This document shows, in pieces, positions 7,765 through 60,874 of a stretch of DNA of 64,000 bases. Location of the stretch: the NCBI GenBank assembly GCA_965222955.1, contig OZ244974.1, positions 1,536,226-1,600,225 on the forward strand, written 5' to 3'. A program made the position numbers and the translations under genes. Each line of letters opens with the position of its first letter. Positions within the stretch are counted from its first letter, which is position 1. Source of the DNA: Hyphomicrobiales bacterium (lineage in GTDB: Bacteria > Pseudomonadota > Alphaproteobacteria > Rhizobiales > CBDCVD01). Below the pieces are notes generated by a model. The model saw nothing but the letters and a program-made list of their open reading frames with translations. It made no database searches and was not told the DNA's origin.

Positions 7765-7935
7765 CTGGAGCATAATCTTAAAACAAGCGTGGCTCCACTC
7801 GCAAATCGAGAAACAGAATGGTTCTGTTAAGACATGATACGTTCTGAATGTCCGTTACAGGGAATTGCGTTCCGGCCGATCGTGCGGCGGACAGGTGATA
7901 CACAGTTCTTGCTTTCAGGAAGAGGCAACAGATAA

Positions 7936-9480: not shown

Positions 9481-9947
9481 TGGCGCTTCTTCGCTATTTG
9501 CGCCAGATGCTTCTGGGCGAGAACGATACGGCGTCGGCACCGGTCGCGTTTGAAGATGACGATATTCGGCTGGCGGTTGCGGTTCTGCTGGTGCATATGC
9601 TGCGTGTGGACGGCGTATCGGCGCCCCAGGAGCAGGAGGCGATGCGCGCGCTATTGACATCGGAGTACGAACTAAAGGCCGATCAGGTTGACGATCTGAT
9701 TGATCTGGCGATTGATCGGGACAACGAGGCGATCGATATTTACCGCTTTACGTCGCTGATCAAGGCGCGCACGCAACCCGAACAACGCCTGCGTATTGTG
9801 GAAATGCTCTGGCAGATCAGTTATGCCGATAATGCGTTGCACGAATTCGAGGATAATCTGGTCTGGCGGGTGGCCGAACTCCTGGGAGTCTCGTCGCGCG
9901 ATCGTATGCTGCTGAAACAAAAGGTTCGCGCCAGGCACGACGCCTAA
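9480..9947 (+). CDS. TerB-family (tellurite-resistance-like) protein
   Basis: The protein is 155 aa with ...RLRIVEMLWQISYADNALHEFEDNLVWRVAELLGVSSRDRMLLKQKV. Its ATG overlaps the betC TGA, suggesting translational coupling. Confidence 0.65.
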   Translation: MALLRYLRQMLLGENDTASAPVAFEDDDIRLAVAVLLVHMLRVDGVSAPQEQEAMRALLTSEYELKADQVDDLIDLAIDRDNEAIDIYRFTSLIKARTQPEQRLRIVEMLWQISYADNALHEFEDNLVWRVAELLGVSSRDRMLLKQKVRARHDA

Positions 9948-9967: not shown

Positions 9968-10238
9968 GAGCGTGTCAGGTCTTAATAGAAGCAATTCTGT
10001 TTCTCGATTGGCGAGGCGAACCACGCTCAAGGCGATCGAAGAGCGATGGCGACCCATCTCTCGAGAGCGGCTTGGGCGTGGGCGTCCGCCAATCGGAAAC
10101 CCGAAGGGACGGGCGCTTTTGCACCAATATGAACCTTAAGTCTCTTGAAAATAGCCCCACTATATCCTGCGAGATTTAAGGTTCATCTTGTCGCAAAATC
10201 GCTCCGTCAGAATGGTTCTATTAAGACCTGACACGCTC
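9968..10238 (+). mobile_element. Family A MITE (271 bp), reference copy
   Basis: The TIRs are GAGCGTGTCAGGTCTTAATAGAA and TTCTATTAAGACCTGACACGCTC, flanked by TA on both sides. The interior contains long imperfect hairpins (cgattggcgaggcg...cgtccgccaatcg; atgaaccttaagtctc...gagatttaaggttcat). Confidence 0.85.
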
Positions 10239-12965: not shown

Positions 12966-14522
12966 ATGACGAAAAACCTCGTGTCTCAGTTTCATCGGCT
13001 CGAAGAGCAGATCACCACGCATTTCCAGGCCCAGCGGGACGCCGAGAATGCGTTGAAAAAAAAGAACAGCGCGCTTCTTGACAATAACCGAGCCCTGGTC
13101 GCCGCCTACGATGCGTTGAGCGAGCGGCTGAAGAACATCAGCACCCGATTGGCAAGCGAGCACAATCGCTTGCTGCAGGCATCGCGCCACGATGGTTTAA
13201 CCGGCCTGCCCGGGCGTGCCGGATTTCACAACTATCTGAAGGAAGCCGCCACAACCGCCAGAAACGATCGCACCAGTTTTGCCCTGATCAGCATCAATCT
13301 GAGGGATTTCAACGCCATCAACACCACGTTCGGCCATGTCGTTGGCGATGGGGTGTTGAAAATCATTGCCGCGCGCCTGGCAAGGGCAATGGCCGCCACC
13401 GGTTATGTGGCGCGCGTCGGCGGCGACGAATTCGCCGTTATCGTCAACGGGATCGCCGATACCCAAACGGCCGAAGACGAAGCCGAACGCATCCTTTCGC
13501 TTATCCGGGCGCCAATCACGTATAAAGAACGAACGCTGCGCATCGGCGCCTCCATCGCCGTCGTGACGTGTCCGCAACAGGCGGACAATGTTCATGATCT
13601 GCAGCGCTTTGCCGATCTGGCGCTACATCGCGCCAAGGCCTCCACGGGCGAGCGGGTGATCGCCTTCAGCCCGACCATGATGCAGGCGCATACGCTACGC
13701 AAATCCATGGGCCGGTACATGCACAGCGCCATGCTCGATGCGATCGATCAGGGAAAGATTCGCATGCTGTTTCAGCCGGTGATCGATCTGACCGACTACC
13801 GGCCGGCGGGTCTTGAGGCGCTCATGCGCTGGCATCACCGCGAACACGGCTGGATCGCGCCGCTTGACGTTCTGGCGATCGCCAACGATACCGGCCTGTT
13901 GCCCATCCTGACCCGCCATATTTTTGAAAAGAGCATTCGCGAGGCGCGCGCCAGTCTGCATAGCGGACAGATCCGCTGGCTGGCGCTGAACCTGACCGCC
14001 AGCGATCTGCACGATCCCGAACTCGGCGATTTCCTTCTCGATTGCCTCAAACGCTATGCCGTGGACCCGCGGCACATAAAGCTGGAGATCACCGAACATA
14101 CGGTCATCGGCGACACCCAGGGCGCCAAACGGGTCATGACACGGCTGGCCGAACACGGTATCCGCTTTGCCATTGACGACTTCGGTACCGGCTATTCGAA
14201 CCTGCTCATTCTCAACCGGCTGCCCTTTCACAGTCTGAAGATCGATCGCTCCTTCATTACCGACATCGCCCGCAATAATCATGTCAGTACTATCGTGAAG
14301 GCCATGATCAATCTTGCCCATGCGCTGAAACTGTCGGTCATTGCGGAAGGGATCGAAGACCGCGGGCAGTTTGACATCGCCCGCTCGCTGGGATGCGAAT
14401 ACGGCCAGGGGTTCCTGTTCGGCCGCCCGCAACCGCTTGCCCATCTGCAAAAAACCAATCTGTTCCGGCGGGCGGCGAGCCATGTCCTGGACCGGGACAA
14501 GCCCGCCCGCCGCTCCGCCTAG
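12966..14522 (+). CDS. GGDEF-EAL diguanylate cyclase/phosphodiesterase with N-terminal coiled coil
   Basis: It contains RVGGDEFAVIV, LEALMRW and DDFGTGYSNL. The protein is 518 aa. The stop TAG is the TA flank of MITE A2. Confidence 0.9.
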   Translation: MTKNLVSQFHRLEEQITTHFQAQRDAENALKKKNSALLDNNRALVAAYDALSERLKNISTRLASEHNRLLQASRHDGLTGLPGRAGFHNYLKEAATTARNDRTSFALISINLRDFNAINTTFGHVVGDGVLKIIAARLARAMAATGYVARVGGDEFAVIVNGIADTQTAEDEAERILSLIRAPITYKERTLRIGASIAVVTCPQQADNVHDLQRFADLALHRAKASTGERVIAFSPTMMQAHTLRKSMGRYMHSAMLDAIDQGKIRMLFQPVIDLTDYRPAGLEALMRWHHREHGWIAPLDVLAIANDTGLLPILTRHIFEKSIREARASLHSGQIRWLALNLTASDLHDPELGDFLLDCLKRYAVDPRHIKLEITEHTVIGDTQGAKRVMTRLAEHGIRFAIDDFGTGYSNLLILNRLPFHSLKIDRSFITDIARNNHVSTIVKAMINLAHALKLSVIAEGIEDRGQFDIARSLGCEYGQGFLFGRPQPLAHLQKTNLFRRAASHVLDRDKPARRSA

Positions 14523-14796
14523 AGCGTGTCCGGTCTTAATAGAAGCAATTTTCGTTTCCCGATTGGCGAGGCGATACCCAGGCTCAAGGCGATCGAAGAG
14601 CGATGTTTATCCATCTCTCGAGAGCGGCTTGGGCGTGGACGTCCGCCAATCGGCAAACCCGAAGGGACGGGCGCTTTTGCACCAAGATGGGCCTTAAGTC
14701 TCTTGCAAATAGCCCCACTATATCCTGCGAGACTTAAGGCCCATCTTGTCGCAAAATCGCTCCGTCAGAATGGTTCTATTAAAACCTGACACGCTC
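14522..14796 (+). mobile_element. Family A MITE (copy 2)
   Basis: The ends are gagcgtgtccggtcttaatagaagc... and ...ttctattaaaacctgacacgctc, flanked by TA/TA. Confidence 0.85.
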
Positions 14797-23360: not shown

Positions 23361-23736
23361 GAGCGTGTCAGGTCTTATACCAGCGGTATTGGCGTTTTGT
23401 ACGCGTTGACTTGTGTATCGTGCTGATAAGACAACGGTTTTAAACCGGGCCAGGAGTCAAACGCAAAGCCCCTTGGTATTAATAGAATTAATTTTCGTTT
23501 CTCGATTGGCGAGGCGGACCACGCCCAAGGCGATCGAAGAGCGATGTTTACCCATCTCTCGAGAGCGGCCTGGGCGTGGACGTCCGCCAATCGGAATCCC
23601 GAAGGGACGGGCGCTTTTGCACCAATATGGGCCTTAAGTCTCTTGAAAATAGCCCCACTATATCCTGCGAGACCTAAGGCCCATCTTGTCGCAAAATCGC
23701 TCCGTCAGAATGGTTCTATTAAAACCTGACACGCTC
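23361..23736 (+). mobile_element. Family A MITE (copy 3) carrying a nested B element, itself inserted in an F element
   Basis: The junctions read ggtcTTA|taccagcgg...ccttggta|TTAatagaa, so TTA is duplicated. The F halves (gggaaaaagtcccca / ggcttcgcctcgatccactttttccc) flank the A copy. Confidence 0.8.
23378..23478. mobile_element. Family B MITE nested in A3
   Basis: It is a 101-bp B unit with a TTA duplication of the A sequence on both sides. Confidence 0.8.
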
Positions 23737-26234: not shown

Positions 26235-26505
26235 GAGCGTGTCAGGTCTTAATAGAATCAATTCTGTTTCCCGATTGGCGAGGCGAACCACGCCCAAGGC
26301 GATCGAAGAGCGATGTTTATCCATCTCTCGAGAGCGGCTTGGGCGTGGACGTCCGCCAATCGGAAACCCGAAGGGACGGGCGCTTTTGCACCAATATGGA
26401 CCTTAAGTCTCTTGAAAATAGTCCCACTATATCCTGCGAGACTTAAGGCCCATCTTGTCACAAAATCGCTCCGTCAGAATGGTTCTATTAAGACCTGACA
26501 CGCTC
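26235..26505 (+). mobile_element. Family A MITE (copy 4)
   Basis: It is 271 bp with both TIRs intact. Its right end supplies the last codons and the stop of metZ. Confidence 0.85.
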
Positions 26506-27681
26506 TAGAGCCGTCGAGAGATCGTCGCACAGATCGTCCACATGCTCCAGGCCGACCGAAAGGCGTACCATGGCGTCGGTAATGCCCTGTTCGGCGCGCT
26601 GTTGCGGGCCAAGCCGCTGGTGGGTTGTCGTCGCGGGATGGGTGACAAGGCTTTTCGCATCGCCAAGATTATTGGAAATACGGACAATCTCCAGGGCATT
26701 GAGAAAACGAAAACATGCCGCGCGATCGCCCTTGACATCGAATGTCACCAGGGTTCCGCCGTGGTGCATTTGCCTGGCGACGATATTGCTCTGGGGATGG
26801 TCCGCGCGGGTAGGGTACCAGACCCGGCGCACCGCTTCATGCGCGGCGAGAAAATCCGCCAGCCTGGACGCGGTGCGCTCCTGGCGGGCGACACGCACCG
26901 CCAGCGTCTCAAGACCCTTTAGCATCACCCATGCATTGAAGGGGCTCATGCAGGGGCCCGTCTGGCGCAGAAAATCATGGACATATTCATCGATATACGC
27001 CTTGCTCGCCAACAGAACCCCTCCCAGACAACGTCCCTGTCCGTCGATATGTTTGGTCGTCGAGTAGATGACCACATCGGCGCCAAGGGCCAGGGGCTGC
27101 TGTCCCAGGGGAGTGGCGAAGACGTTATCGACAATCAGCACCGCGCCATGTGCCCGGGCGATCTGCGCCACGGCGGCGATATCGATCACATCAAGACGCG
27201 GATTGGTCGGCGATTCGAGAAAACAAACGCGGGTCTGCGGTCGCATGGCCGCCTCCCAGGCGCCCGGATCGCATCCGTCGATAAGCGTGTAGTCGATACC
27301 GAAACGCGGCGCCAGGTCCTCAATGATGTAGCGGCACGAGGCAAACAGCGCCCGCGGCGCAACGATGTGATCGCCGGCGCTGGCGCGCGAAAGGATGGCG
27401 GCAGTGACCGCTGCCATGCCCGAGGCGGTCGCGCGTGCGTCCTCAGCCCCTTCCAGGGCGGCCATGCGCTGCTCGAACATCGCGACGGTTGGATTGGAGA
27501 AACGCGAATAGATAAAGCCGTCGCTCTCGCCCTTAAAGCGCGCCTCGGCCTGTTCCGCCGTCTCATACACAAAGCCCTGGGTCAGGAACAGGCTTTCGCT
27601 GTTTTCGTTGAATGCACTGCGCAGCACCCCTGCATGAACGAGCGTCGTATCCGCATGCCAGTCTGTCTTTGTCTTGACCAT
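26488..27681 (-). CDS. metZ: O-succinylhomoserine sulfhydrylase (Cys/Met PLP family)
   Basis: I trimmed the start to MVKTKTDWHADTTLVHAGVLRSAFNENSESLFLTQGFVY...FIYSRFSNPTV. The C-terminus ...STALERVRS* reads into MITE A4. Confidence 0.8.
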   Translation of the reverse strand: MVKTKTDWHADTTLVHAGVLRSAFNENSESLFLTQGFVYETAEQAEARFKGESDGFIYSRFSNPTVAMFEQRMAALEGAEDARATASGMAAVTAAILSRASAGDHIVAPRALFASCRYIIEDLAPRFGIDYTLIDGCDPGAWEAAMRPQTRVCFLESPTNPRLDVIDIAAVAQIARAHGAVLIVDNVFATPLGQQPLALGADVVIYSTTKHIDGQGRCLGGVLLASKAYIDEYVHDFLRQTGPCMSPFNAWVMLKGLETLAVRVARQERTASRLADFLAAHEAVRRVWYPTRADHPQSNIVARQMHHGGTLVTFDVKGDRAACFRFLNALEIVRISNNLGDAKSLVTHPATTTHQRLGPQQRAEQGITDAMVRLSVGLEHVDDLCDDLSTALERVRS

Positions 27682-27700
27682 TGTTGCTTTCCCGGCCAGT

Positions 27701-27765
27701 TGTGATCTTTCTGCAGGTTGTTCTCGAAAAACCCATCGGGTGCCGCTGGCCATTCATCTGATCAT
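27701..27765. repeat. Family C half-element, 19 nt upstream of the metZ start
   Basis: The sequence is tgtgatctttctgcaggttgttctcgaaaaacccatcgggtgccgctggccattcatctgatcat. It is cut off by MITE A5 at a TA. Confidence 0.6.
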
Positions 27766-27767
27766 TA

Positions 27768-27940
27768 GAGCGTGTCAGGTCTTAATAGAAGCAATTTTCG
27801 TTTCCCGATTGGCGAGGCGACACCGAAGCTCAAGGCGATCGAAGAGCGATGGCGACCCATCTCTCGAGAGCGGCCTGGGTGTGGGTATCGCCTCGCCAAT
27901 CGGGAAACGAAAATTGCTTCACTTAAAAACTGAAAGGCTC
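27768..27940. mobile_element. Family A short variant (173 bp, symmetric arms, variant right end)
   Basis: The ends are gagcgtgtcaggtcttaatagaagcaattttcgtttcccgattggcgaggcg... and ...cgcctcgccaatcgggaaacgaaaattgcttcacttaaaaactgaaaggctc. Confidence 0.75.
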
Positions 27941-28158
27941 TAGCAAGTTGTTTTACGTGGCTGCAAGCCGGCCGGCTCAAATGACCACAAGGGGCGCCAT
28001 ACGCCAATAGTTACAGCATCGGAGTTGTGAGTTTATATAATCGCGGTGTTGGCGTCAATCGCCAGATCGTTTAAGCAGATACGGTCGCCTGCGCAGTCAG
28101 ATCGACCGCCGGGTGCCCTGGCGACAGAAAACGCCCCAGATACGGAACAGGTACAACG

Positions 28159-37391: not shown

Positions 37392-37511
37392 CTGCGGCGC
37401 GCCTCCGTGGCGCCGGCGAAAAACCGTATCGGTAAATCGGTAATTGGAGCGTGTCATGTCTTGACAGAATTGCTTCTATTAAGACATGACACACTCTAAT
37501 AATAATCCCCT

Positions 37512-37538: not shown

Positions 37539-37544
37539 TAAGGG

Positions 37545-37935
37545 AGTGTTCTGTTGCCAGGTTCTCCATGACCCCGCCCCATCCTTGCAGGGATGGGGGC
37601 TAAAGTTCGAGGCGTCGCGCCTTAAGCGGCGAGACGGACCTCTGCGTAGTTGTCATTTGCAACTATCAAAACGGCCCGATAACGGTGGATACCATACCGA
37701 ACGAAAACGCGTTCTTTACACCTTCGTCGATCCTGTTTCGCCCCCATCACAGACGGGCCTTGTGGCGTGCTGCGCTGCATTGTGCTACAAACCTGTCAGG
37801 TACAGATTTGCGATAAAGCGCAACACGAACCCCGCCGACACAACCAGGGCCGGTCTGTGGTGGAGGCGCCGGGTACCGCCCCCGGGTCCGAACAGCTTAT
37901 TGCAACGGTCATTTATCGTCATAGCCGGCAAGGCC
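37545..37935 (-). ncRNA. ssrA: Two-piece (circularly permuted) tmRNA
   Basis: All elements are on the minus strand. The acceptor piece ends ...ccgggggcggtacccggCGCCTCCACCA, with its 3' end at ~37858. The coding piece starts GGGGGCGAAACAGGATCGACG at ~37744, which allows a G3:U70 pair with the acceptor strand. The tag ORF GCA AAT GAC AAC TAC GCA GAG GTC CGT CTC GCC GCT TAA encodes ANDNYAEVRLAA* (37622-37660). The outer ends are approximate. Confidence 0.88.
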
Positions 37936-38024
37936 GGCACGTGACTATAACATAGTCACGCCCCTTACGCCAGACAATAGGTGATATCGGGACTGACCAG
38001 GAGAGTTTTGCTTTTCTTTGACTA

Positions 38025-38297
38025 GAGCGTGTCAGGTCTTAATAGAATCATTCTGACGGAGCGATTTTGCGACAAGATGAGCCTTAAGTCTCACAGGATA
38101 TAGTGGGGCTATTTTCAAGAGACTTAAGGTTCATCTTGGTGCAAAAGCGCCCGTCCCTTCGGGTTTGCCGATTGGCGGACGCCCACGCCCAAGCCGCTCT
38201 CGAGAGATGGGTCGCCATCGCTCTTCGATCGCCTTGGGCGTGGTTCGCCTCGCCAATCGAGAAACGAAAATTGCTTCTATTAAGACCTGACACGCTC
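38025..38297 (-). mobile_element. Family A MITE (copy 6, inverted orientation)
   Basis: The ends are gagcgtgtcaggtcttaatagaatcattctgacggagcg... and ...ttgcttctattaagacctgacacgctc, flanked by TA/TA. Confidence 0.85.
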
Positions 38298-43519: not shown

Positions 43520-43651
43520 TCGGGGGCGTGGGTTTGCGTTTGTCATGACAACGGGGACACTCGGCTTGCGCCGTGGTTTCCCTACCGATTTCCCTATGGT
43601 ATCGTACCACGGGCGTAAGGTATTGAAAAAAATAAAGTATCCCGTTTTGTA

Positions 43652-43957
43652 TCAAAGCAGAACCAGTTGTTCTGTGCCTGTTTTTTCATGTTTTTTTCGT
43701 TTTCCGACGAGAATCACCATGCGCGCATATTGCTTGTCCGTGATCTGGAATACACGAACGCCACCCTCCTCAGGCACATTACCCCTTAGACGCTCAATAT
43801 GTTTGTCCACAGCCGCCTGACCGCGGCAAATGCGCGTATAGACAGAGAATTGCAGCATATCATACCCGTCTTTTTTCAGAAAGTTGCGGAATTGTGTCGC
43901 GGCACGGCGCTCGGCCTTACTGCCAACGGGCAGATCAAAGATAACAAACAGATACAT
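43652..43957 (-). CDS. cas2: CRISPR-associated endoribonuclease Cas2 (type II)
   Basis: The 101-aa protein reads MYLFVIFDLPVGSKAERRAATQFRNFLKKDGYDMLQFSVYTRIC..., a typical Cas2 ferredoxin-fold N-terminus. Its frame is intact. Confidence 0.85.
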   Translation of the reverse strand: MYLFVIFDLPVGSKAERRAATQFRNFLKKDGYDMLQFSVYTRICRGQAAVDKHIERLRGNVPEEGGVRVFQITDKQYARMVILVGKRKKHEKTGTEQLVLL

Positions 43958-43961
43958 ATAA

Positions 43962-44084
43962 TACTAACGGTCATAAAGAATGACCGTTATCGTTCAAACG
44001 CCACTAAGGCTTACGCGCCATAAGGCGCGGCGGCCGGTCGGCCTTGCCAACGGCTTTATGAGTCAACCACAAGAGCCGTTGGTA
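43962..44084. mobile_element. Family E MITE (123 bp) between the cas1 stop and cas2 start
   Basis: The ends are tactaacggtcataaagaatgaccgtta... and ...ccaacggctttatgagtcaaccacaagagccgttggta. It is flanked by TAA/TAA and starts 4 nt from the cas2 ATG. Confidence 0.8.
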
Positions 44085-44486
44085 TAACGCACCCTTTCGC
44101 CCGTCATGCTACCATGCCTGCGGGAAAAGCAGTTGCCCGCCTCTCTGCTGTTTTACGGCGCGGCGCAAACTGTCGGCGGTTCTCTCGCTCGCATTTAACA
44201 GGGAAAGCTGCTCTCGCTCCAACACGACATCTCTGAAAAGAACACCCGCCATTGCCCGGCGATCATCCTGCACAAGGGCATCGCCTTGCGCGGTACGGTC
44301 CTTGAGATATTCGATTGCATGCCAGTCCACCACCGCCCGATAGGGTTCAATTAAATCATCAACCAGATTGAAGGCGTTCAGATGCCCGTCGTGATGAAGA
44401 CCGACGCAAGGTAAAAAGCCGCATCCGACGACAGCCCGGGCAAGGGCCGCCCGGATACAGGCATACCCATAGTTTAGAGCGTGTCA

Positions 44487-44609
44487 TACTAACGGTCATA
44501 AAGAATGACCGTTATCGTTCAAACGCCACTAAGGCTTACGCGCCATAAGGCGCGGCGGCCAGTCGGCCTTGCCAACGGCTTAATGAGTCAACCATAAGAG
44601 CCGTTGGTA
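44487..44609. mobile_element. Family E MITE nested in the TIR of A7
   Basis: The junctions read gtgTCA|tactaacgg...ccgttggta|TCAggtc, so the 3-bp TCA is duplicated. It is near-identical to the copy at 43962-44084. Confidence 0.85.
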
Positions 44610-44664
44610 TCAGGTCTTAATAGAACCATTCTGACGGAGCGCTTTTGCGACAAGATGAACCTTA

Positions 44665-44765
44665 TACCAAGGGACTTTGCGTGTGACTCCTAACGCAGAT
44701 TAAAACCGTTGTCTTATCAGCACGATACACAAGTCAGCATGTACAAAGCGCCAATACCGCTGGTA
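44665..44765. mobile_element. Family B MITE nested in A7
   Basis: The junctions read aaccTTA|taccaaggg...ccgctggta|TTAagtctc, so the 3-bp TTA is duplicated relative to uninterrupted A copies. Confidence 0.85.
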
Positions 44766-45492
44766 TTAAGTCTCGCAGGATATAGTGGGGCTATTTTCAA
44801 GAGACTTAAGGTTCATCTTGGTGCAAAAGCGCCCGTCCCTTCGGGTTTCCGATTGGCGGACGCCCACGCCCAGGCCGCTCTCGAGAGATGGGTCGCCATC
44901 GCTCTTCGATCGCCTTGGGCGTGGTTCGCCTCGCCAATCGAGAAACAGAATTGCTTCTATTAAGACCTGACACGCTCTAGAAGCGCATTGCGCAGATCCC
45001 CGTCATCGGAACGTTGGAAACCGTCAAAAATCCGACTCCAATAGTAGCGCGCCGCCCGTGCCTCGACATTTTTGGGATCCCCCGATTGCACCCGCGAGGC
45101 CATGGCCGATAATACCGTCTCATCCCCGTGCTGCATTAAATGAAGATTTTCTGCCTGATTGCGGATTTTGGCTTTAACGATGTTTTTCCAGCAACGCTTT
45201 TTGAAAGGCTTGCTCAAAGCCAGTTGCTGGCGCGCCACTTCCGCCTGTGCATGATAGGTATGAAAGGAAAGGGCCAGCCCGCACGGATGGTGACGCTGGT
45301 CGGAAAAGACAATAGGCGTGCCGGCCTCCATACAGGCGGCAATCAGCCGCGCCGAGAGCGTGGCCTTGTTCGTATCAAGGATGATCCAGGCCGCATCTTC
45401 CAGGGGAAAGAACAAGGGCTCGGCTGCTGCATCCCCTTCAAGGTCGCAAACCCTGATACGGCCCTTGTCCAGCGACAAGGACGCCGCCCGGC

Positions 45493-48213
45493 TTATGTGC
45501 AGACCACGCCATGCCATGTACGCTTTTCCGATTTGATTTCACTTTTGCGACCAAGGCGGTCAACCTGAAATTTGCTGAACGAAAGAAGTGTCCGGCAACC
45601 GATACCACGGATCTGCCGTTGCCGGCTGACCTCCTCCGAGAGGGTAATGCTGGCGGTGGAACGGTCGACGCCGCGATAATAGCCCTGAATGATCTCGCCG
45701 TCTCTCTTCGCAACTTCCACCCAGGAAAACGGATAAAGGCTGAACCTGAATGAATACGTCTCGTTCATCTCAGGCCATTCTTTTTCTGTTTTCCCGGCTG
45801 TTGTCGCCTTGTTGGGCGGTTTGGGCCATTGCGCCCGATCGGCAATCTGATGAACATAGATCGGGACGATGTAGAACTTTCCGCTTTTTTCAAAAACATC
45901 AAGGCGAACGATGTTGCCGTTGTCCACATGGCCATTATTGACCTCAAAACCGGAGCGCTCGGTGGTTGGATTTTTTTCCGAGCGCACTGTCACTTTACGG
46001 ATCAAATGGCCGTTATTGCGCCGGGGCAGCTTGTCAGCCGGCGCTCCGGCGTCGAGCCAGTCGGACACTGCCCTGTAGACATCCTTATTGCGATCAGGAT
46101 CCTTTAACCTTTCAGGAGCGGCCCTGGTAATTTTTTCGATCGATTTACGCTCATAGATAATGCGCTTGCCATTCTCGATACGAGACTTTCTGATTGTAGC
46201 CTCGTGTCCTGCGCCGCGCCCGCGCCGGTTTTCACTACGTGCAACCGGTGCGGCGTCGCGGGCGGCAATCACATCTTCGGTAAAGCGCTCCCAGGGCTTG
46301 TCGACCTTGAGTTTTTTTATCGATTGCAGGCCTTTTTCCTCGCGCTCCTGAATGGCTTCGGTCAATTGTCGCAGTTGGCTTTCCGTGCAGACGGCCACGA
46401 TAATTGCATCGACCGCGTGATGGCGGTCATCTTCGATGCGTTTTTTCTTACCATCCTTGTCAGGCAGATATTTGAGCCGCTCAAGTCCCCATTTCTGCCT
46501 GAGTATTGCGATGATCTGGCCGGAACGGGCCCATATGCGCTTGCGCCGCCCGCCTTTCGCTTCTTCGGGCGTGTATATGCGCTCGATTTCCGTATGCGCC
46601 ACCCGTGCGGCGTAACGCATATCGTTCAAATTGCGTGCACTAAAGTTCTTTTTGCGATCGCTGAAATCCTTTATCGTTAAATTGCGGATTTTGAAGCCTT
46701 TTATCTTCTTGTTCTTGTGCATGTTCTTAACCCGCTGCTCAAACATATGCCATCGCTCGCGATTGTGGCCAAGCCATTCAAATGGCGTTTGGTCTTTCTT
46801 GTCGCGATTCTCCTTAACCCGGGCCAGGGCCTTGTTGTGCCAGGAATTGTCATAAGAACGGGAGAGGGGAAGAATATGGTCGATTTCTACCGCGTGTTCG
46901 CCGTCACACAGTTCATTGACGTCAATACACGTCGGCGGATGAGAGTACATACAATATTTATCCTGTTCTTTCCAAAGTTCGTAGCGCATTAGTTCTTGAT
47001 CCAAGCAATGTTCTTTATCGGTTAACTTGCAAAAATTCTTTCGTGCCTCGCGCCGGGCTTTTGTTCTCTTTTCGATACCCTTTCTAATTTCATCACGCGT
47101 TTTGGCGCCTTTGCCAACGTCACGGCCCGGTTCCAAATAAACCGCACCCGGCCGCTCACCCAAATGGTGTATCAGTGCCTTGACTTGTTTTAAGGTCTCC
47201 AGCACGGCGCGTTTGGCGACCGGATTGCTGATATTGGCAAGTTTGGCCTCATTTTGCCGAGTATGATCATAGCCGGCCTGTTTGCAGGCCTTGTCATAGG
47301 TCTTGCCCGCCACCAGACCGGGAAGAATATTGCGTGCCGCTTTTGTCGAAATATGTCCGGCCTTGGAAAATTTGGCAAACGCGCCTGTTTCAACACCCTC
47401 CATGAGTGCTGCCAACACCGCCGGCTCAAGTTCAAGGGTTTCAAGGCCCTGGCGGATACGTTCGATATCCTCGCGAAAGGTCAGCACGTGGGCAATCCGG
47501 TCAAGCTGCGCAGGGGTCTGTACTAGATGGTTCCAGGCGGCCTCACCGATCACCTTATAAAGCGTCGCAGAGCCAAAGGCGCTACCCTTGGAGGCGCGTG
47601 CCAAATCCTCGCCCGTGCTGTCATCACTTACACCAGCAAAGCTGGTATCCTTTGGCAACTTGCATAGCGAAATCAGTTTTTCCCGGGTGATCGATTTTGC
47701 ACCTTTGCCAAAGCCGGTGATCGCCATGGCCAACTCGTCGGGCGTCAAGCGCCGGCCCGAATAGGAGTCATCAACTATCCTGATATTGTTGAGTTTTGAT
47801 AGAAAACGGAACCGCTCAAAAGAATAGGCAAGGCTGCTTGCGCGTTTTTCTTCCGGCTCAAAGGGGCAATTGCCAAGCAGTATTTCCGAATCCTGCAAGG
47901 GTAATTGATCAAAGGCAAAACGGGCGTATTCCTCCTCCATCTCCCGCTCGGCATATTCTGATCCCAGGGCGCGCTGGCGCTTAAACAGTATTTTGACTTC
48001 GCTTTCATGCAAGCACCGAAAAAACGTATGAGAGTAATCCCCATGGCGATTGCGTTTTTTCCCGGCAAATTCCGGATCCCTGGCAAACATCTCGCCAACA
48101 GTGATGTATCTGGCCGCTTTCTCTTTGATCGACGCTGCGCCTTGCAGAACTTTTTTCTTTTCCGATGGCGCGTTGGAGGATTTGTCGGATCCTGTCGGGG
48201 ATACCTTTTCGAA
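45493..48213 (-). pseudogene. cas9: cas9 (type II-C), 5'-truncated; lacks RuvC-I and the bridge helix
   Basis: The open frame is 906 codons, with the first ATG at 48090 (865 aa). It aligns by eye to Neisseria-type Cas9 from ~residue 140 onward. Matching segments are GDYSHTF, RuvC-II (VYLEPGRDVGKG), HNH (VEIDHILPLSRSYDNSWHNKAL), RuvC-III (DDRHHAVDAIIVA) and the PI region (VRLDVFEKSGKFYIVPIYVHQIA). An in-frame TAA at 48214-48216 leaves only 109 nt before the next gene, so no room remains for the N-terminus. Confidence 0.88.
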
Positions 48214-48325
48214 TTAATACCGATTCAATCTGACACGCTCCAGCGCCTGGCCGGGTTCGGGTTTCGCTTTCCGGTCTAACTTGAGGCGGGCGGATTATCC
48301 ATTGTCCATGCGCCGGCCCTGGCGC

Positions 48326-49483: not shown

Positions 49484-50920
49484 ATGGCAAGCCCTGAAAA
49501 ATATACCCCTTCCGCCCGGGAAAAGGGATTTCTGGATCAGGTCCGGAACGGAAAATACAATCGCGAAATCATTACCGGATTGAAGAAATTTATCTCCGGC
49601 GATGTCCCCGATGAGATGAAGGACTTCTACAGTCGCAAGGAGTTGGACGCGCTGGTGGCGCTCGATGGCTCAAGGCGCGACGTCCAGAGCCGCATGCCGG
49701 TGAAACTCACCCGGCACTACTTCGCGCAAGCCAGGAACAGCCGGGCGATGCAGGTGCTGATCAAGGCAAGCCCGAAGGAAACCGTAGACCTCGATGGTGC
49801 CGAGGATCCGGGCAAGCAAATGGATTATAGCCCGATTGAAGGGTTAATCCACAAATACGAGTTGGGTCTCATCTACGTCGCCTCCACCTGTTCGGCCCAT
49901 TGCCGGTTCTGCTATCGTGAGGAACTGATTGCCAAAAAGGAGATAGCCCGCCCCGATGGCACCGTAGCGCCAAAAGGCCTGGCGCGGATTGGCGAGATCG
50001 TTGCCTATATCCGCGAGCACAACCGCCTGGTCGCGGGAAACGGTGGCCGGCATCCCGAAACGGGGCGCGAGAAGCTGCGCGAAATCCTGATGTCGGGGGG
50101 CGATCCGATGGTGCTCGGCAACAGGAACATCGCGCAATGGCTGGCGGCGCTGGCCGAGGCCGGTATCGAATCAATTCGTATCGGCACCAAGGAACTGGCA
50201 TTCTTTCCGGATCGCTTTGACGATACCTTTGTCGATATGCTCGACCGGTTCCACGAGACCTATCCCGAAACCAATTTGCGCCTTATGGTGCATTTCAACC
50301 ATCCGGACGAATTTCTGAAAAAGGATAGGGACGGTAACTATATCGAACACCCCCGGGGTGGCCTGGTGTGGCTTGAAAATACCCGTGCTGCGGTGAAGCG
50401 TTTGCGCCGCCGCAACTGGATCAATATGGACAACCAGGCACCGATCATCGCCGATATCAACAATGACGCGGAAGCACTCAGGATCATGCAGCGCGAGTTG
50501 AAGCGCAATGGCATTGAGAACCACTATTTCTTCTGCGGCCGTGATATCGTTGGGCACAAGGCGTTCAACGTGCCGATTGAGGAGGCCTGGCAGGTTCTCA
50601 ATGAATCGCAAAAGGGGCTTTCCGGTGTTGAGGCCCATGCCCGCCTTTCGATCACCCATTACAAGGGCAAGACGGAAGTCGCCGCTGTGACCGATGCGCC
50701 GGTCGCGGGTCTGGCGGGCGCGGAAAATGGTGTCGTGATCTTCAAACTGCTGCGCTCGGCCGCCGATGCGCCGGAGCGAGCCAGGGTGACGATCGTTGGG
50801 CGAAACCCCGAGGCCATCTGGTTCTCCGGCTATGACGATCGGGTGCTGTTCGATGAGGCCGGGCTGTATTCGATGTATGGTATCGGCCTGAGACAGGAAA
50901 AAACGGACAAGGCCGCCTGA
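49484..50920 (+). CDS. KamA-family radical SAM aminomutase-like protein
   Basis: It contains CSAHCRFCYR (CxxxCxxC) and LMSGGDPM. At 478 aa it is longer than canonical lysine 2,3-aminomutase or EpmB. Confidence 0.75.
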   Translation: MASPEKYTPSAREKGFLDQVRNGKYNREIITGLKKFISGDVPDEMKDFYSRKELDALVALDGSRRDVQSRMPVKLTRHYFAQARNSRAMQVLIKASPKETVDLDGAEDPGKQMDYSPIEGLIHKYELGLIYVASTCSAHCRFCYREELIAKKEIARPDGTVAPKGLARIGEIVAYIREHNRLVAGNGGRHPETGREKLREILMSGGDPMVLGNRNIAQWLAALAEAGIESIRIGTKELAFFPDRFDDTFVDMLDRFHETYPETNLRLMVHFNHPDEFLKKDRDGNYIEHPRGGLVWLENTRAAVKRLRRRNWINMDNQAPIIADINNDAEALRIMQRELKRNGIENHYFFCGRDIVGHKAFNVPIEEAWQVLNESQKGLSGVEAHARLSITHYKGKTEVAAVTDAPVAGLAGAENGVVIFKLLRSAADAPERARVTIVGRNPEAIWFSGYDDRVLFDEAGLYSMYGIGLRQEKTDKAA

Positions 50921-51011: not shown

Positions 51012-51210
51012 TACCAGCGGTATTGGCGTTTTGTACGCGCTGACTTGTGTGTCGTGCTGACAAGACAACGGTTTTAATCTGCGCCGGGAGCCAAACGCAA
51101 GTCCCTGTATACCAGCGGTATTGGCGTTTTGTACGCGCTGACTTGTGTGTCGTGCTGACAAGACAACGGTTGCAAACCAGGTCAGGAGTCAAACGCAAAG
51201 CCCCTTGGTA
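51012..51210. mobile_element. Two head-to-tail family B MITEs
   Basis: The units are 51012-51109 and 51110-51210. The junction reads ...gtccctgta|taccagcgg... Confidence 0.8.
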
Positions 51211-51586: not shown

Positions 51587-53110
<1,524 letters not shown>

Positions 53111-53577
53111 TACCAGCGGTATTGGCTTCTTGTTCACGCTGGCTTGTGTATCGTGCTGATAGAGCGTGTCAGTTCTTAAGTGAACATTCTGACGGAGCGA
53201 TTTTGTGACAAGGCCAAGCAAAGTCTCGCAGGATATAGTGGGGCTATTTGCAAGAGACTTAAGGTTCATATTAGATCAGCCTGGCGTTAGCTGTACCCAT
53301 TTTGCCAAGGGTAAAGCTAACGCCATAAAGCTGATCGCCCCGAAATCCATAGCAAAAGCGCCCGTCCCTTCGGGTTTGTCGATTGGCGGGCGCCGACGCT
53401 CAAACCGATCTCATGAGATGCGCCCACATCGCATGTCGATCGGCTCAAACGTGGGTCATCTCGCCAATCGGGAAACGAAAATTGCTTCAGTTAAAAACTG
53501 AAAGGCTCCAAGACCTGACACGCTCCAGGACAGCGGTTTTAAACCGGGTCAGGAGTCAAACGCGAAGCTCCCTGGTA
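53111..53577. mobile_element. Family B MITE split by a family A insertion, starting right after the ALDH stop codon
   Basis: The left part of B (taccagcggtattggcttcttgttcacgctggcttgtgtatcgtgctga) is followed by A9. The right part of B (ggacagcggttttaaaccgggtcaggagtcaaacgcgaagctccctggta) comes after it. Confidence 0.75.
53162..53525 (-). mobile_element. Family A MITE (copy 9, divergent, with an extra internal palindromic insert)
   Basis: The ends are gagcgtgtcagttcttaagtgaacattctgacggagcg... and ...ctgaaaggctccaagacctgacacgctc. The extra segment is gatcagcctggcgttagct...agctaacgccataaagctgatc. Confidence 0.7.
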
Positions 53578-53593
53578 AGAGAAAGCAAAAGAC

Positions 53594-54825: not shown

Positions 54826-54826
54826 A

Positions 54827-55320
54827 CCAGGGGACTTGCGTTTGTTTCCTGACCTGGTTTACAACCGTTGTCTTATCAGCACGACACACAAGTCAGCGCG
54901 TACAACAGCCGATACCGCTGGTATACAGGGGCGTTGCGTTTGACTCCTGGGCCGGTTTAAAACCGTTGCCTTATCAGCACGACACACAAGTCAGCGCGTA
55001 CAAAACGCCGATACCGCTGGTATACAGGGGCGTTGCGTTTGACTCCTGGGCCGGTTTAAAACCGTTGCCTTATCAGCACGACACACAAGTCAGCGCGTAC
55101 AAAACGCCAGTACCGCTGGTATACAAGGGGCGTTGCGTTTGACTCCTGAACTGGTTTACAACCGTTGTCTTATCAGCACGACACACAAGTCAGCGCGTAC
55201 AAAACGCCAATACCGCTGGTATACAAGGGACTTGCGTTTGACTCCTGACCCGGTTTACAACCGTTGTCTTATCAGCACGACACACAAGTCAGCGCGTACA
55301 AAACGCCAATGCCGCTGGTA
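54827..55320. repeat. Head-to-tail array of five family B MITEs (period 99-100 bp)
   Basis: The unit junctions ...ccgctggta|tacaRgggg... sit at 54921, 55020, 55119 and 55219. The array ends with gctggta at 55320, about 180 bp before tRNA-Lys. Confidence 0.85.
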
Positions 55321-56815: not shown

Positions 56816-59800
56816 TTACCCTGGGGGGTCACCGCGCAAAGCCTCGCGCACCAGATCGGGACGATAGAGCGTATCGTGGAAATTGTCTATGGACAGGACT
56901 TCCAGGCCACGCACGACGTTGAGGTGTTTGGCGGCCTCCGGGCTTGAGGCATTGAAAAACCCTTCCGGGGTTATCACAAGCCAGGTACCATCTTTAAAGG
57001 CGATAAAGCGGGCCAGTTCCTTACCCGTCGCCACATCCCACAGGCGCGTCGTATCATCACCAGAGCCGGTGAGAACGGTGCGTCCGTCGGGGGAAAAGGC
57101 AATGCTCCTCACGTTTACGGAATGCCCCTCAAAGCGCTGGATTTCCTTACCCGTAGCCGCGTCCCACAGCCGGGCGGTGTCGTCCCCGGACCCGGTGAGA
57201 ACGGTGCCCCCGTCGGGGGAAAAGGCAACGCTGTTCGGGTTTCCGGAATGCCCTTCAAAGCGCCGGATCTCCTTACCCGTAGCCGCGTCCCACAGCCGGG
57301 CGGTGTCGTTCCAAGAGCCGGTGAGCATGGTGCGCCCGTCGGGGGAAAAGGCAACGCTGAACACAGCACCGGCATGCCCTACAAAGCGCCGGATCTCCTT
57401 ACCGGTGGCCGCGTCCCACAGCCGGGCGGTCTCGTCCTCGGCCCCGGTGAGAACGGTGCGGCCGTCGGGGGAAAAGGCAACGCTGGTCACATCGCGGGAA
57501 TGCCCTTCAAAGCGCCGGATCTCCTTGCCGGTGGTCGCGTCCCACAGCCGGGCGATGTGGTCCCAAGAGCCGGTGAGAACGGTGCGTCCGTCGGGGGAAA
57601 AGGCAACGCTGGTCACATAACCGGAATGCCCTTCAAAGCGCCTCAGTTCCTTACCCGTGACCGCGTCCCACAGCCGGGTGGTGTCGTCTACCGAGCCGGT
57701 GAGAACGGTGCCCCCGTCGGGGGAAAAGGCAACGCTCCGCACAGTATCGGCATGCCCTTGAAAGCGCCGAATCTCCTCACCGGTGGCCGCATCCCACAGC
57801 CAGGCGGTGTTGTCTACCGAGCCGGTGAGAACGGTGCGGCCGTCGGGGGAAAAGGCAACGCTGAACACAGCACCAGCATGCCCTTCAAAGCGCCGGATCT
57901 CCTTACCGGTGGCCGCGTCCCACAGCCGGGCGATGTTGTCAAACGAGCCGGTGAGAACGGTGCGGCCGTCGGGGGAAAAGGCAGCACTGGACGCAGGACG
58001 GGAATGCCCTTCAAAGCGCCGGATCTGCTTACCCGTGGCCGCGTCCCACAGCCGGGCGGTGTCGTCCCAAGAGCCGGTGAGAACGGTGCGGCCGTCGGGG
58101 GAAAAGGCAACGCTGGTCACGTCATAGGCATGCCCTTCAAAGCGCCGGATTTCCTTACCGGTGGCCGCGTCCCACAAACGGGCGGTGTTGTCCCAAGCGC
58201 CGGTGAGAACGGTGCGCCCGTCGGGGGAAAAGGCAACGCTGGTCACGTCATAGGCATGCCCTTCAAAGCGCCGGATTTCCTTACCGGTGGCCGCGTCCCA
58301 CAAACGGGCGGTGTTGTCCCAAGCGCCGGTGAGAACGGTGCGCCCGTCGGGGGAAAAGGCAACGCTGGACACAACATGGGAATGCCCTACAAAGCGCCGG
58401 ATCTCCTTACCGGTGGCCGCGTCCCACAGCCGGGCGGTGTTGTCTACCGAGCCGGTGAGAACGGTGCGCCCGTCGGGGGAAAAGGCAACGCTGGTCACAT
58501 CGCGGGAATGCCCTTCAAAGCGCCGGATCTCTTCACCGGTGGCCACGTCCCACAGCCGGGCGGTGCTGTCCCGGGATCCGGTGAGGACGGTGCCCCCGTC
58601 GGGGGAAAAGGCAACACTGGACACATAATCGGCATGCCCTTCAAAGCGCCGGATCTCCTTACCGGTAGCCGCGTCCCACAGCTGGGCGGTGTTGTCCCAA
58701 GAGCCGGTGAGAACGGTGCGCCCGTCGGGGGAAAAGGCAACGCTCCACACACCTTCGGCATGCCCTTCAAAGCGCCGGATCTCCTTACCCGTGGCCGCAT
58801 CCCACAGCCGCGCGGTATTGTCCATAGAGTTGGTAAAAACGGTGCGCCCGTCGGGGGAAAAGGCAACACTGGACACATAATCGGCATGCCCTTCAAAGCG
58901 CCGGATCTCCTTACCCGTGGCCGCGTCCCACAAACGGGCGGTCTTGTCCATAGAGCCGGTGAGAACGGTGCCCCCTTCGGGGGAAAAGGCAACACTGTAC
59001 ACCCCATCGGCATGCTCCACAAAGCGATCGGCATGCCCCACAAAGCGCTGGATCTCCTTACCCGTAGCCGCGTCCCACAGCCGGGCGGTGTTGTCCCGGG
59101 ACCCGGTGAGAACGGTGCCCCCGTCGGGGGAAAAGGCAACGCTCCAAACATTATCGGCATGCCCTTCAAAGCGCCGGATCTCCTTACCCGTGGCCGCGTC
59201 CCACAAACGGGCGGTCTTGTCCATAGAGCCGGTGAGAACGGTGCCCCCTTCGGGGGAAAAGGCAACACTGTACACCCCATCGGCATGCTCCACAAAGCGA
59301 TCGGCATGCCCCACAAAGCGCTGGATCTCCTTACCCGTAGCCGCGTCCCACAGCCGGGCGGTGTTGTCCCGGGACCCGGTGAGAACGGTGCCCCCGTCGG
59401 GGGAAAAGGCAACGCTCCAAACATTATCGGCATGCCCTTCAAAGCGCCGGATCTCCTTACCCGTGGCCGCGTCCCACAAACGGGCGGTCTTGTCCATAGA
59501 GCCGGTGAGAACGGTGCCCCCTTCGGGGGAAAAGGCAACACTGTACACCCCATCGGCATGCTCCACAAAGCGATCGGCATGCCCCACAAAGCGCTGGATC
59601 TCCTTACCCGTAGCCGCGTCCCACAGCCGGGCGGTGTTGTCCCGGGACCCGGTGAGAACGGTGCCCCCGTCGGGGGAAAAGGCAACGCTCCAAACATTAT
59701 CGGCATGCCCTTCAAAGCGCCGGATCTCCTTACCCGTGGCCGCGTCCCACAAACGGGCGGTCTTGTCCATAGAGCCGGTGAGAACGGTGCCCCCTTCGGG

Positions 59801-60874
59801 GGAAAAGGCAACACTGTACACCCCATCGGCATGCTCCACAAAGCGATCGGCATGCCCCACAAAGCGCTGGATCTCCTTACCCGTAGCCGCGTCCCACAGC
59901 CGGGCGGTGTTGTCCCGGGACCCGGTGAGAACGGTGCCCCCGTCGGGGGAAAAGGCAACGCTCCAAACATTATCGGCATGCCCTTCAAAGCGCCGGATCT
60001 CCTTACCCGTGGCCGCGTCCCACAAACGGGCGGTCTTGTCCATAGAGCCGGTGAGAACGGTGCCCCCTTCGGGGGAAAAGGCAACACTGTACACCCCATC
60101 GGCATGCTCCACAAAGCGATCGGCATGCCCCACAAAGCGCTGGATCTCCTTACCCGTAGCCGCGTCCCACAGCCGGGCGGTGTTGTCCCGGGACCCGGTG
60201 AGAACGGTGCCCCCGTCGGGGGAAAAGGCAACGCTCCAAACATTATCGGCATGCCCTTCAAAGCGCCGGATCTCCTTACCCGTGGCCGCGTCCCACAAAC
60301 GGGCGGTCTTGTCCATAGAGCCGGTGAGAACGGTGCCCCCTTCGGGGGAAAAGGCAACACTGTACACCCCATCGGCATGCTCCACAAAGCGATCGGCATG
60401 CCCCACAAAGCGCTGGATCTCCTTACCCGTAGCCGCGTCCCACAGCCGGGCGGTGTTGTCCCGGGACCCGGTGAGAACGGTGCCCCCGTCGGGGGAAAAG
60501 GCAACGCTGGTCACCCAAAAGGCATGCCCCAATTGGGCAAAGACGCGAATGTCGTCCGCGGCCGCTTGTGCAATGAGGGCATTGCCGGTGCCATTTGAGC
60601 CACCGGATGCCGCTATCAAATATTTATTATTCACCCAGGCTTCCTCGCCTGAGGCAAGACGCACCCGGCTCCAGTCCCCGTCGCGGGCCAACTCCTCCAC
60701 CACGGCGCCCGGGGGCAGCACATCGACTTTATCGTACTCCGGTCCCGGCCCTTGCCGCACGTTCAACTCTGTATCCGGCCTGACCTTGTATGTCGCGGCA
60801 AAAGCGGCCTCGCCCCACAACAATAGAGCGGCAACAAAACAAACAATAAAACCAATAACACGCCGTTCACGCAT
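56816..60874 (-). CDS. Secreted SH3-domain + 27x WD40-repeat protein (1352 aa)
   Basis: It has a signal-like N-terminus MRERRVIGFIVCFVAALLLWGEAAFAA. A bacterial SH3-like segment follows (YKVRPDTELNVRQGPGPEYDKVDVLPPGAVVEELARDGDWSRVRL). After that come 27 units of the form GH..V.SVAFSPDG.TVLTGS.D.TARLWDAATGKEIRRFE. The large antisense ORFs are shadows. Confidence 0.85.
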   Translation of the reverse strand: MRERRVIGFIVCFVAALLLWGEAAFAATYKVRPDTELNVRQGPGPEYDKVDVLPPGAVVEELARDGDWSRVRLASGEEAWVNNKYLIAASGGSNGTGNALIAQAAADDIRVFAQLGHAFWVTSVAFSPDGGTVLTGSRDNTARLWDAATGKEIQRFVGHADRFVEHADGVYSVAFSPEGGTVLTGSMDKTARLWDAATGKEIRRFEGHADNVWSVAFSPDGGTVLTGSRDNTARLWDAATGKEIQRFVGHADRFVEHADGVYSVAFSPEGGTVLTGSMDKTARLWDAATGKEIRRFEGHADNVWSVAFSPDGGTVLTGSRDNTARLWDAATGKEIQRFVGHADRFVEHADGVYSVAFSPEGGTVLTGSMDKTARLWDAATGKEIRRFEGHADNVWSVAFSPDGGTVLTGSRDNTARLWDAATGKEIQRFVGHADRFVEHADGVYSVAFSPEGGTVLTGSMDKTARLWDAATGKEIRRFEGHADNVWSVAFSPDGGTVLTGSRDNTARLWDAATGKEIQRFVGHADRFVEHADGVYSVAFSPEGGTVLTGSMDKTARLWDAATGKEIRRFEGHADNVWSVAFSPDGGTVLTGSRDNTARLWDAATGKEIQRFVGHADRFVEHADGVYSVAFSPEGGTVLTGSMDKTARLWDAATGKEIRRFEGHADYVSSVAFSPDGRTVFTNSMDNTARLWDAATGKEIRRFEGHAEGVWSVAFSPDGRTVLTGSWDNTAQLWDAATGKEIRRFEGHADYVSSVAFSPDGGTVLTGSRDSTARLWDVATGEEIRRFEGHSRDVTSVAFSPDGRTVLTGSVDNTARLWDAATGKEIRRFVGHSHVVSSVAFSPDGRTVLTGAWDNTARLWDAATGKEIRRFEGHAYDVTSVAFSPDGRTVLTGAWDNTARLWDAATGKEIRRFEGHAYDVTSVAFSPDGRTVLTGSWDDTARLWDAATGKQIRRFEGHSRPASSAAFSPDGRTVLTGSFDNIARLWDAATGKEIRRFEGHAGAVFSVAFSPDGRTVLTGSVDNTAWLWDAATGEEIRRFQGHADTVRSVAFSPDGGTVLTGSVDDTTRLWDAVTGKELRRFEGHSGYVTSVAFSPDGRTVLTGSWDHIARLWDATTGKEIRRFEGHSRDVTSVAFSPDGRTVLTGAEDETARLWDAATGKEIRRFVGHAGAVFSVAFSPDGRTMLTGSWNDTARLWDAATGKEIRRFEGHSGNPNSVAFSPDGGTVLTGSGDDTARLWDAATGKEIQRFEGHSVNVRSIAFSPDGRTVLTGSGDDTTRLWDVATGKELARFIAFKDGTWLVITPEGFFNASSPEAAKHLNVVRGLEVLSIDNFHDTLYRPDLVREALRGDPPG
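58883..60513. repeat. Six tandem 273-bp units inside the WD40 gene, identical by eye
   Basis: The string gcccttcaaagcgccggatctccttacccgtggccgcgtcccacaaacgg recurs at 58888 and 59161, and the pattern continues every 273 bp. Each unit encodes two WD repeats (42 + 49 aa). An additional 126-bp duplication lies at ~58131-58382. Confidence 0.85.

Follow-up and report, generated by a model that had tools for sequence, protein, structure and literature searches.

MITEs of bacteria that duplicate the dinucleotide TA belong to transposases of the IS630/Tc1-mariner type or to the IS427 group of the IS5 family; the Correia elements of Neisseria and the cyanobacterial Nezha elements are examples. Duplications of the type TNA are produced by the IS1031 group of the IS5 family in bacteria and by the PIF/Harbinger-Tourist MITEs in eukaryotes. 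MITEs that are nested in one another occur in maize and rice. In the type I-E systems of Shigella and E. coli, cas genes of decaying loci were inactivated by insertion sequences. For Haloquadratum walsbyi, insertions of mobile genetic elements into mobile genetic elements have been described, including a MITE inside a spacer of a defunct CRISPR (PMC3119063).

The locus described here is a type II-C CRISPR-Cas locus caught mid-decay. It lies in a 64-kb stretch of DNA from an uncultured alphaproteobacterium, which was analyzed as a whole and is called the window. Its cas1 gene contains a MITE of a family named A, and this copy itself carries one copy each of two further families, E and B. The nested insertion, originally predicted from the DNA letters, was confirmed. 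Element A resembles the TA-duplicating MITEs Correia and Nezha in its small size, its lack of coding capacity, long TIRs, strong folding and high copy number, and also in its CTA/.../TAG-like target bias, its location in or near genes and its TIR-derived ORF tails. It differs from them in its Y-shaped core of two hairpins and its length of 271 nt, and no sequence similarity to a named family was established. Elements B and E always show 3-bp T-N-A duplications like the IS1031 group and the Harbinger-Tourist elements, whereas searches of plasmids and metagenome contigs linked their terminus TACYARSGG to no known IS and the directly abutting head-to-tail arrays of B are atypical. As in Haloquadratum and in plants, nesting serves to read target sites and the sequence of events, and the elements have built up in mobile DNA and in a defunct CRISPR locus. 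The differences are the alphaproteobacterial host, the target cas1 and the presence of three families within 501 nt. Like the type I-E loci of Shigella and E. coli, this CRISPR-Cas system was lost by transposon insertion and deletion while the pieces of its ORFs stayed otherwise intact; unlike them, it is of type II-C, was hit by MITEs instead of full insertion sequences and shows four lesions. A search of the literature on MITEs in cas1 and on nested bacterial MITEs found no description of A, B or E.

Interruption of cas1 and restoration of its reading frame

The positions of all elements and gene parts are listed in Table 1. The two 12-nt ends of the insert in cas1, TA included, are TAGAGCGTGTCA and TGACACGCTCTA with a complementarity of 100%. 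The N-terminal frame of cas1, which lies on the minus strand, reads ...DLRNALLERVRS and then a stop codon. In the sense of cas1, ...DLRNALL is followed by the MITE sequence GAGCGTGTCAGG..., which is translated to ERVRS and a stop. The C-terminal frame resumes after ...CACGCTC-TA as NYGYACIRAAL... and terminates with the stop codon 44109-44111. The predicted limits of the insert, the TA on both of its sides, the N-terminal tail LLERVRS and the resumption at NYGYA were exact. Removal of 44477-44979, that is, of the insert plus one TA, led to an ORF of 301 codons for a protein of 301 amino acids, in which NALLNYGYA is restored in frame as had been foreseen. When neither TA was kept the frame was broken, and when both were kept a stop codon resulted. 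Thus, exactly one TA is needed for closure of the frame, which proves a 2-bp TA duplication.

Table 1. Positions of cas genes, mobile elements and repeat remnants in the 64-kb window.
Feature	Position	Strand	Remarks
cas1, N-terminal part	44978..45517	-	codons 1-180; present ORF reads through into the MITE, stop at 44960 (...NALLERVRS, stop)
cas1, C-terminal part	44109..44474	-	codons 181-301 and stop; begins NYGYACIRAAL; carries conserved HH and DD residues
Composite insert, MITE A bearing E and B	44477..44977	.	501 nt, of which A 271 nt in total; TA at 44475-44476 and 44978-44979
MITE E copy 2	44487..44609	.	123 nt, termini TACTAACGG...CCGTTGGTA; after position 10 of the left TIR of A; TCA at 44484-44486 and 44610-44612
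MITE B in the insert	44665..44765	.	101 nt, termini TACCAAGGG...CCGCTGGTA; within A, 5' arm of an internal hairpin; TTA at 44662-44664 and 44766-44768
MITE E copy 1	43962..44084	.	TAA at 43959-43961 and 44085-44087; 3 of 123 positions differ from copy 2
cas9 remnant	45493..48213	-	906 open codons; homology to intact 1046-aa Cas9 from residue 148; RuvC-I and bridge helix missing
Solo A-type terminus	48204..48240	-	GAGCGTGTCAGATTGAATCGG...; read GAGCGTGTCAGATTG... at 48240-48204; at the 5' breakpoint of cas9
cas2	43652..43957	-	intact ORF of 101 aa; TIGR01573, 84.8 bits
Single CRISPR repeat	43570..43605	-	20-nt exact match to the conserved repeat core of related loci L002 and L003
Clean A copy	9968-10238
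Clean A copy	14522-14796
Clean A copy	26235-26505		in the last codons of metZ
Clean A copy	38025-38297
Fifth other full-length A copy	23361-23736		B in its TIR, TTA duplication

The restored Cas1 matched the profile TIGR03639 (cas1_NMENI, type II Cas1) in a single stretch over profile positions 1-277 of 278 with 256.3 bits, the curated cutoff being 120. It is a type II Cas1 of the NMENI subtype, and the flanking genes are cas9 and cas2. Three intact Cas1 proteins, encoded in MAGs of Robiginitomaculum and Hyphomicrobiales, shared 60-67% identity with it, aligned without a gap at L180/N181 and left N177-C186 (NALLNYGYAC) invariant. The alignment with the solved structure of Cas1 from Enterococcus faecalis (5xvn) was continuous as well. 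The expectation of one continuous type II Cas1 was thus fully borne out. Apart from the insert no other lesion was present in cas1, and every residue that is invariant among the homologues was retained in the alignment. The invariant residue E152 is located on the N-terminal fragment and the invariant residues H207/H208 and D219/D220 on the C-terminal fragment; from knowledge of the Cas1 family we take all of these to be catalytic. Hence, the insertion separates conserved, presumably catalytic residues.

A protein search retrieved the 185-aa Cas1 fragment as an annotated protein (P0023) on a single contig of 3,393,886 bp. The same search yielded no uninterrupted cas1 from the same species, the closest Cas1 being 67% identical, and a scan of genome contigs with the restored Cas1 returned solely relatives with at most 66% identity. 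Since the nearest Cas1 is 67% identical, the empty site in cas1 is deduced from homologues.

Element A and its copies

Element A has a length of 271 nt and TIRs of about 31 nt, the outer 12 nt of which are 100% complementary. Its ends are GAGCGTGTCAGG...CCTGACACGCTC. The terminus GAGCGTGTCAG was found 22 times in the 64-kb window with no more than one mismatch, compared to 0.88 occurrences expected from shuffled sequence. After subtraction of E with TCA and of B with TTA, the copy in cas1 measures 271 nt and is identical to the copy at 9968-10238 at 266 of 271 positions (98.2%) without gaps. A BLAST comparison of the insert with the window, combined with inspection, revealed four other clean full-length copies of 271-275 nt, each with one TCA at TIR positions 8-10 and one TTA in the hairpin arm. 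These four are mostly flanked by TA on both sides. Among 11 A copies, five have TA on both sides, and most of the remaining ones deviate by one base in the TA pair.

As single-stranded DNA, A is predicted to fold into a TIR stem with two hairpins (-94 kcal/mol, z = -15). Rfam detected no family at gathering level over the region of the insert, and the sub-threshold matches to plant miRNA hairpins are meaningless. All ORFs across the insert are shorter than 90 amino acids. A, B and E are short (<~600 bp), have TIRs, fixed-length target-site duplications and dispersed copies and contain no transposase ORF; these are the generic properties of MITEs. A scan of 30 large ORFs of the window, which are housekeeping genes, detected no transposase. 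Consequently, the elements appear to be non-autonomous and mobilized in trans. An autonomous element with matching termini was not found in the 64-kb window.

An exact-pattern scan of JGI metagenome contigs with the TIR of A gave zero matches, and 21 kb of a related 3.50-Mb metagenome contig from ENA contained no A terminus. Searches of plasmids retrieved as relatives only unannotated repeats of about 278 nt on Phyllobacterium and Aminobacter plasmids, with a core 72% identical to that of A and with different TIRs. One of them is located at 1386-1663 of L006 (Phyllobacterium sp. 628 plasmid p_2); like further hits (H3-H8) it has ends of the type CTAGAGCAAGTTTTGC...GCAAATTTTGTTTATTCG. The core that they share with A suggests a larger MITE superfamily of the Hyphomicrobiales that has not yet been described. 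In the window itself a mini-element of 50 nt (37447-37496) is made up almost entirely of two A-type termini (GAGCGTGTCATGTC...GACATGACACACTC) and lies about 45 nt from a gene for an alpha-type tmRNA (37540-37976).

Elements E and B

The junction of A and E reads GAGCGTGTCA/TACTAACGG (junction string GAGCGTGTCATACTAACGG), and that of A and B reads GAACCTTA/TACCAAGGG (junction string GAACCTTATACCAAGGG). Where E is bordered by two TCA triplets, the clean A copies show a single TCA, in agreement with the predicted insertion of E into the TIR of A with a TCA duplication. The TTA duplication around B in a hairpin of A also held. Its assignment to the second hairpin is valid only in the sense of cas1; on the plus strand it is the first internal hairpin. 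Clean duplications of three families, namely TA for A, TCA for E and TTA for B, are therefore found in one place, as had been noticed before.

Both B and E end in TACYARSGG, which is inverted at the two ends (TACYARSGG...CCSYTRGTA). The B/E terminus TACCARSGG occurred 23 times in the window, compared to 1.24 expected. Seven independent copies of B and E are enclosed by TNA duplications (TTA, TCA or TAA). Around further B copies the pairs TCA/TCA, TAA/TAA and TTA/TTA were observed, and E copy 1 has TAA/TAA. B and E share TACYARSGG and duplicate 3 bp (TNA) whereas A duplicates TA, which argues for a transposase of B and E different from that of A. Judging by these common features, a single transposase that cuts TNA with a 3-bp stagger probably moves both B and E. 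From the length of the duplications and general knowledge of transposase families, we infer that A would be of the IS630/Tc1-mariner or IS427-group type and that B and E would be of the IS1031-group or Harbinger type. Relatives of B and E were not found in plasmids, and an exact-pattern scan of JGI metagenome contigs with the core of B yielded zero matches.

B also forms head-to-tail arrays of five units (54826-55320) and of two units (51012-51210) with a period of 98-100 nt. The units abut directly (GGTA/TACAGGGG) and are not separated by a duplication, which is unusual for a MITE. They may have arisen by slippage, unequal recombination or end-targeted insertion.

Order of the insertions

The nesting fixes a part of the history. 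A cannot have arrived later than E and B; it either preceded them or came together with them, and the original prediction had correctly reasoned that A either came loaded or was struck twice afterwards. We favor the latter course, sequential hits on A in place, as the probable one. E interrupts the left TIR of A after position 10; this should impair the binding of a transposase and would be expected to hinder transposition. Moreover, in the other five full-length A copies of the window these positions are free of E and B. The window contains only two copies of E, and these lie 525 nt apart, a proximity with a chance probability of about 1.6% in 64 kb. This fits a local hop of E. The same three observations speak against a nesting that took place earlier and elsewhere, followed by a jump of A with E and B into cas1 as one pre-loaded unit of 501 nt. 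Mobilization of such a unit is conceivable, as the right TIR is intact throughout and the left one over its outermost 10 nt, and the order of events deduced from the nesting would permit it. On balance, we regard such a joint arrival as rather unlikely and keep to sequential hits on the resident A.

Insertion of MITEs into MITEs is common in the window. B is also found in the TIR of the A copy at 23361-23736, and at 53110-53590 a copy of A is located inside a copy of B. The latter A carries a repeat of about 80 nt (53273-53351), which is also present upstream of metZ in the related genome L005. Frequent nesting was considered as proof of targeting and rejected. By our own estimate the three of about nine B/E insertions that are found inside A correspond roughly to what is expected from selection against genic insertions, since A makes up about 4% of the window, while its share of the non-coding, dispensable part is much higher. 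It is doubtful that B and E actively prefer other MITEs as targets, namely the TNA sites of their palindromic TIRs and hairpins, and that, combined with short-range hopping, a lineage-specific burst of MITEs dismantled the CRISPR-Cas system stepwise. If such a target preference did exist, the MITE-on-MITE insertions preserved in the locus would have been targeted and would go beyond neutral build-up in dispensable DNA.

Decay of the type II-C CRISPR-Cas locus

The damage is not confined to cas1. Cas9 lacks residues 1-147 (about 147 N-terminal codons). In the related locus L003 a tracrRNA anti-repeat is located about 90 nt upstream of cas9; no comparable anti-repeat was found in the window. The solo A-type terminus at the breakpoint suggests that the 5' end of cas9 and the tracrRNA were lost in a transposon-associated deletion. 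Between the Shine-Dalgarno-like sequence GAAAGGG and the ATG of the otherwise intact cas2 lies E copy 1. In related loci cas2 is directly followed by an array of 10-30 repeats. Here, a single repeat is followed by the convergent gene guaA, and neither spacers nor a second CRISPR repeat were found in the window.

With a truncated Cas9, an absent anti-repeat, a split cas1 and one repeat, this is not a functional type II-C locus. Four separate lesions are visible, and the locus is degenerate at every component and dead, a point that the original prediction did not contain; it also lacked the second E copy between cas1 and cas2 and the frequency of nesting in the window. The G+C content over 44-48 kb is 53%, compared to 57-61% nearby, which fits a horizontally acquired island. 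The cas9 remnant and both halves of cas1 are free of further lesions, and the decay therefore looks recent. The long ORF remnants that are still open suggest a recent loss of the CRISPR-Cas locus.

Proposed mechanism and alternative explanations

We have high confidence in the overall explanation that A inserted into cas1, that E and B are nested in A and that the locus is being dismantled. A is a non-autonomous DNA transposon (MITE) whose TIRs of about 31 bp enclose two internal hairpins. Its transposase, acting in trans, would have made a 2-bp staggered cut at TA and placed A between codons 180 and 181 of the type II-C cas1. Most probably after A had landed, E would have entered the TIR of A, possibly by a local hop as suggested by the copy 525 nt away, and B would have entered a hairpin. 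The product would be a Cas1 that is cut short after residue 180 and lacks the C-terminal region with the catalytic His and Asp residues, and it should be without function. Further lesions by mobile elements would have deleted the 5' end of cas9 and the tracrRNA at the solo MITE terminus, displaced the ribosome-binding site of cas2 by E and reduced the array to one repeat.

The perfectly clean in-silico excision raises the question of whether removal from the RNA or a programmed, precise excision eliminates the insert, as with an intron-like element or a reversible switch, so that cas1 would be functional. The remaining cas1 shows no lesion and contains all homologue-invariant residues. However, no match to a ribozyme or intron family was obtained, the anatomy of TIRs plus target-site duplication is that of a DNA transposon, and the TIR itself is broken by E. 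In addition, the N-terminus of Cas9, the tracrRNA and the array are gone, and thus no working system is left to switch. Such a function is very improbable. Repetitive elements can also mislead an assembly. The genome, a single contig of 3.39 Mb, probably stems from a long-read metagenome assembly, and the contig of its closest relative comes from a metagenome, which makes repeat-induced misjoining worth considering. Yet three nested insertions, each bordered by an exact duplication of its target site, are not what a misassembly produces, and the host sequence around a misjoin would not close to the base into a conserved ORF. We therefore judge an assembly artefact to be extremely improbable and retain the explanation by transposon insertions into a decaying locus.

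For three MITE families that had not been described before, the locus shows to the base where the elements begin and end, how long their duplications are and which target sites they use. The host is an uncultured alphaproteobacterium, probably a member of the Hyphomicrobiales. These data can be used for annotation of the rest of this MITE-rich genome and in the search for the transposases that move A, B and E. The process itself is ordinary gene decay by mobile DNA. It holds little biological surprise and leaves the understanding of MITEs and of CRISPR loss unchanged.

An empty site in metZ and further features of the window

The A copy in the last codons of metZ (ORF 26488-27753, minus strand) changes the end of the encoded protein to ...DLSTAL/ERVRS and a stop codon, and (L)GHI and a stop codon follow beyond the element. 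The MITE-encoded tail ERVRS is thus common to MetZ and to the Cas1 fragment. In the related 3.50-Mb genome (L005 11090-11230, ENA ERZ25072999; 79% identity) the metZ orthologue ends with ...DLSTALAHI and a stop codon and contains no element. Consequently, L005 offers an orthologous empty site, which indicates that the A family is mobile. A palindromic variant of A with 173 nt is inserted between the aptamer of a SAM_alpha (SAM-II) riboswitch and the start codon of metZ (27768-27940 and 27922-27998). Homology to the relative resumes precisely where this variant ends. The variant may alter the control of metZ by the riboswitch.

Three ORFs of 478, 581 and 392 amino acids (49484-50920, 7915-9660 and 424-1602) showed no Pfam match at the thresholds used and may be either spurious frames or uncharacterized proteins. 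With 27 WD40 matches, a gene at 56816-60874 encodes a WD40-repeat protein of 1352 amino acids. Within this gene a 273-nt repeat occurs about 13 times with about 90% matching positions; it may have expanded recently or may be prone to collapse in the assembly.
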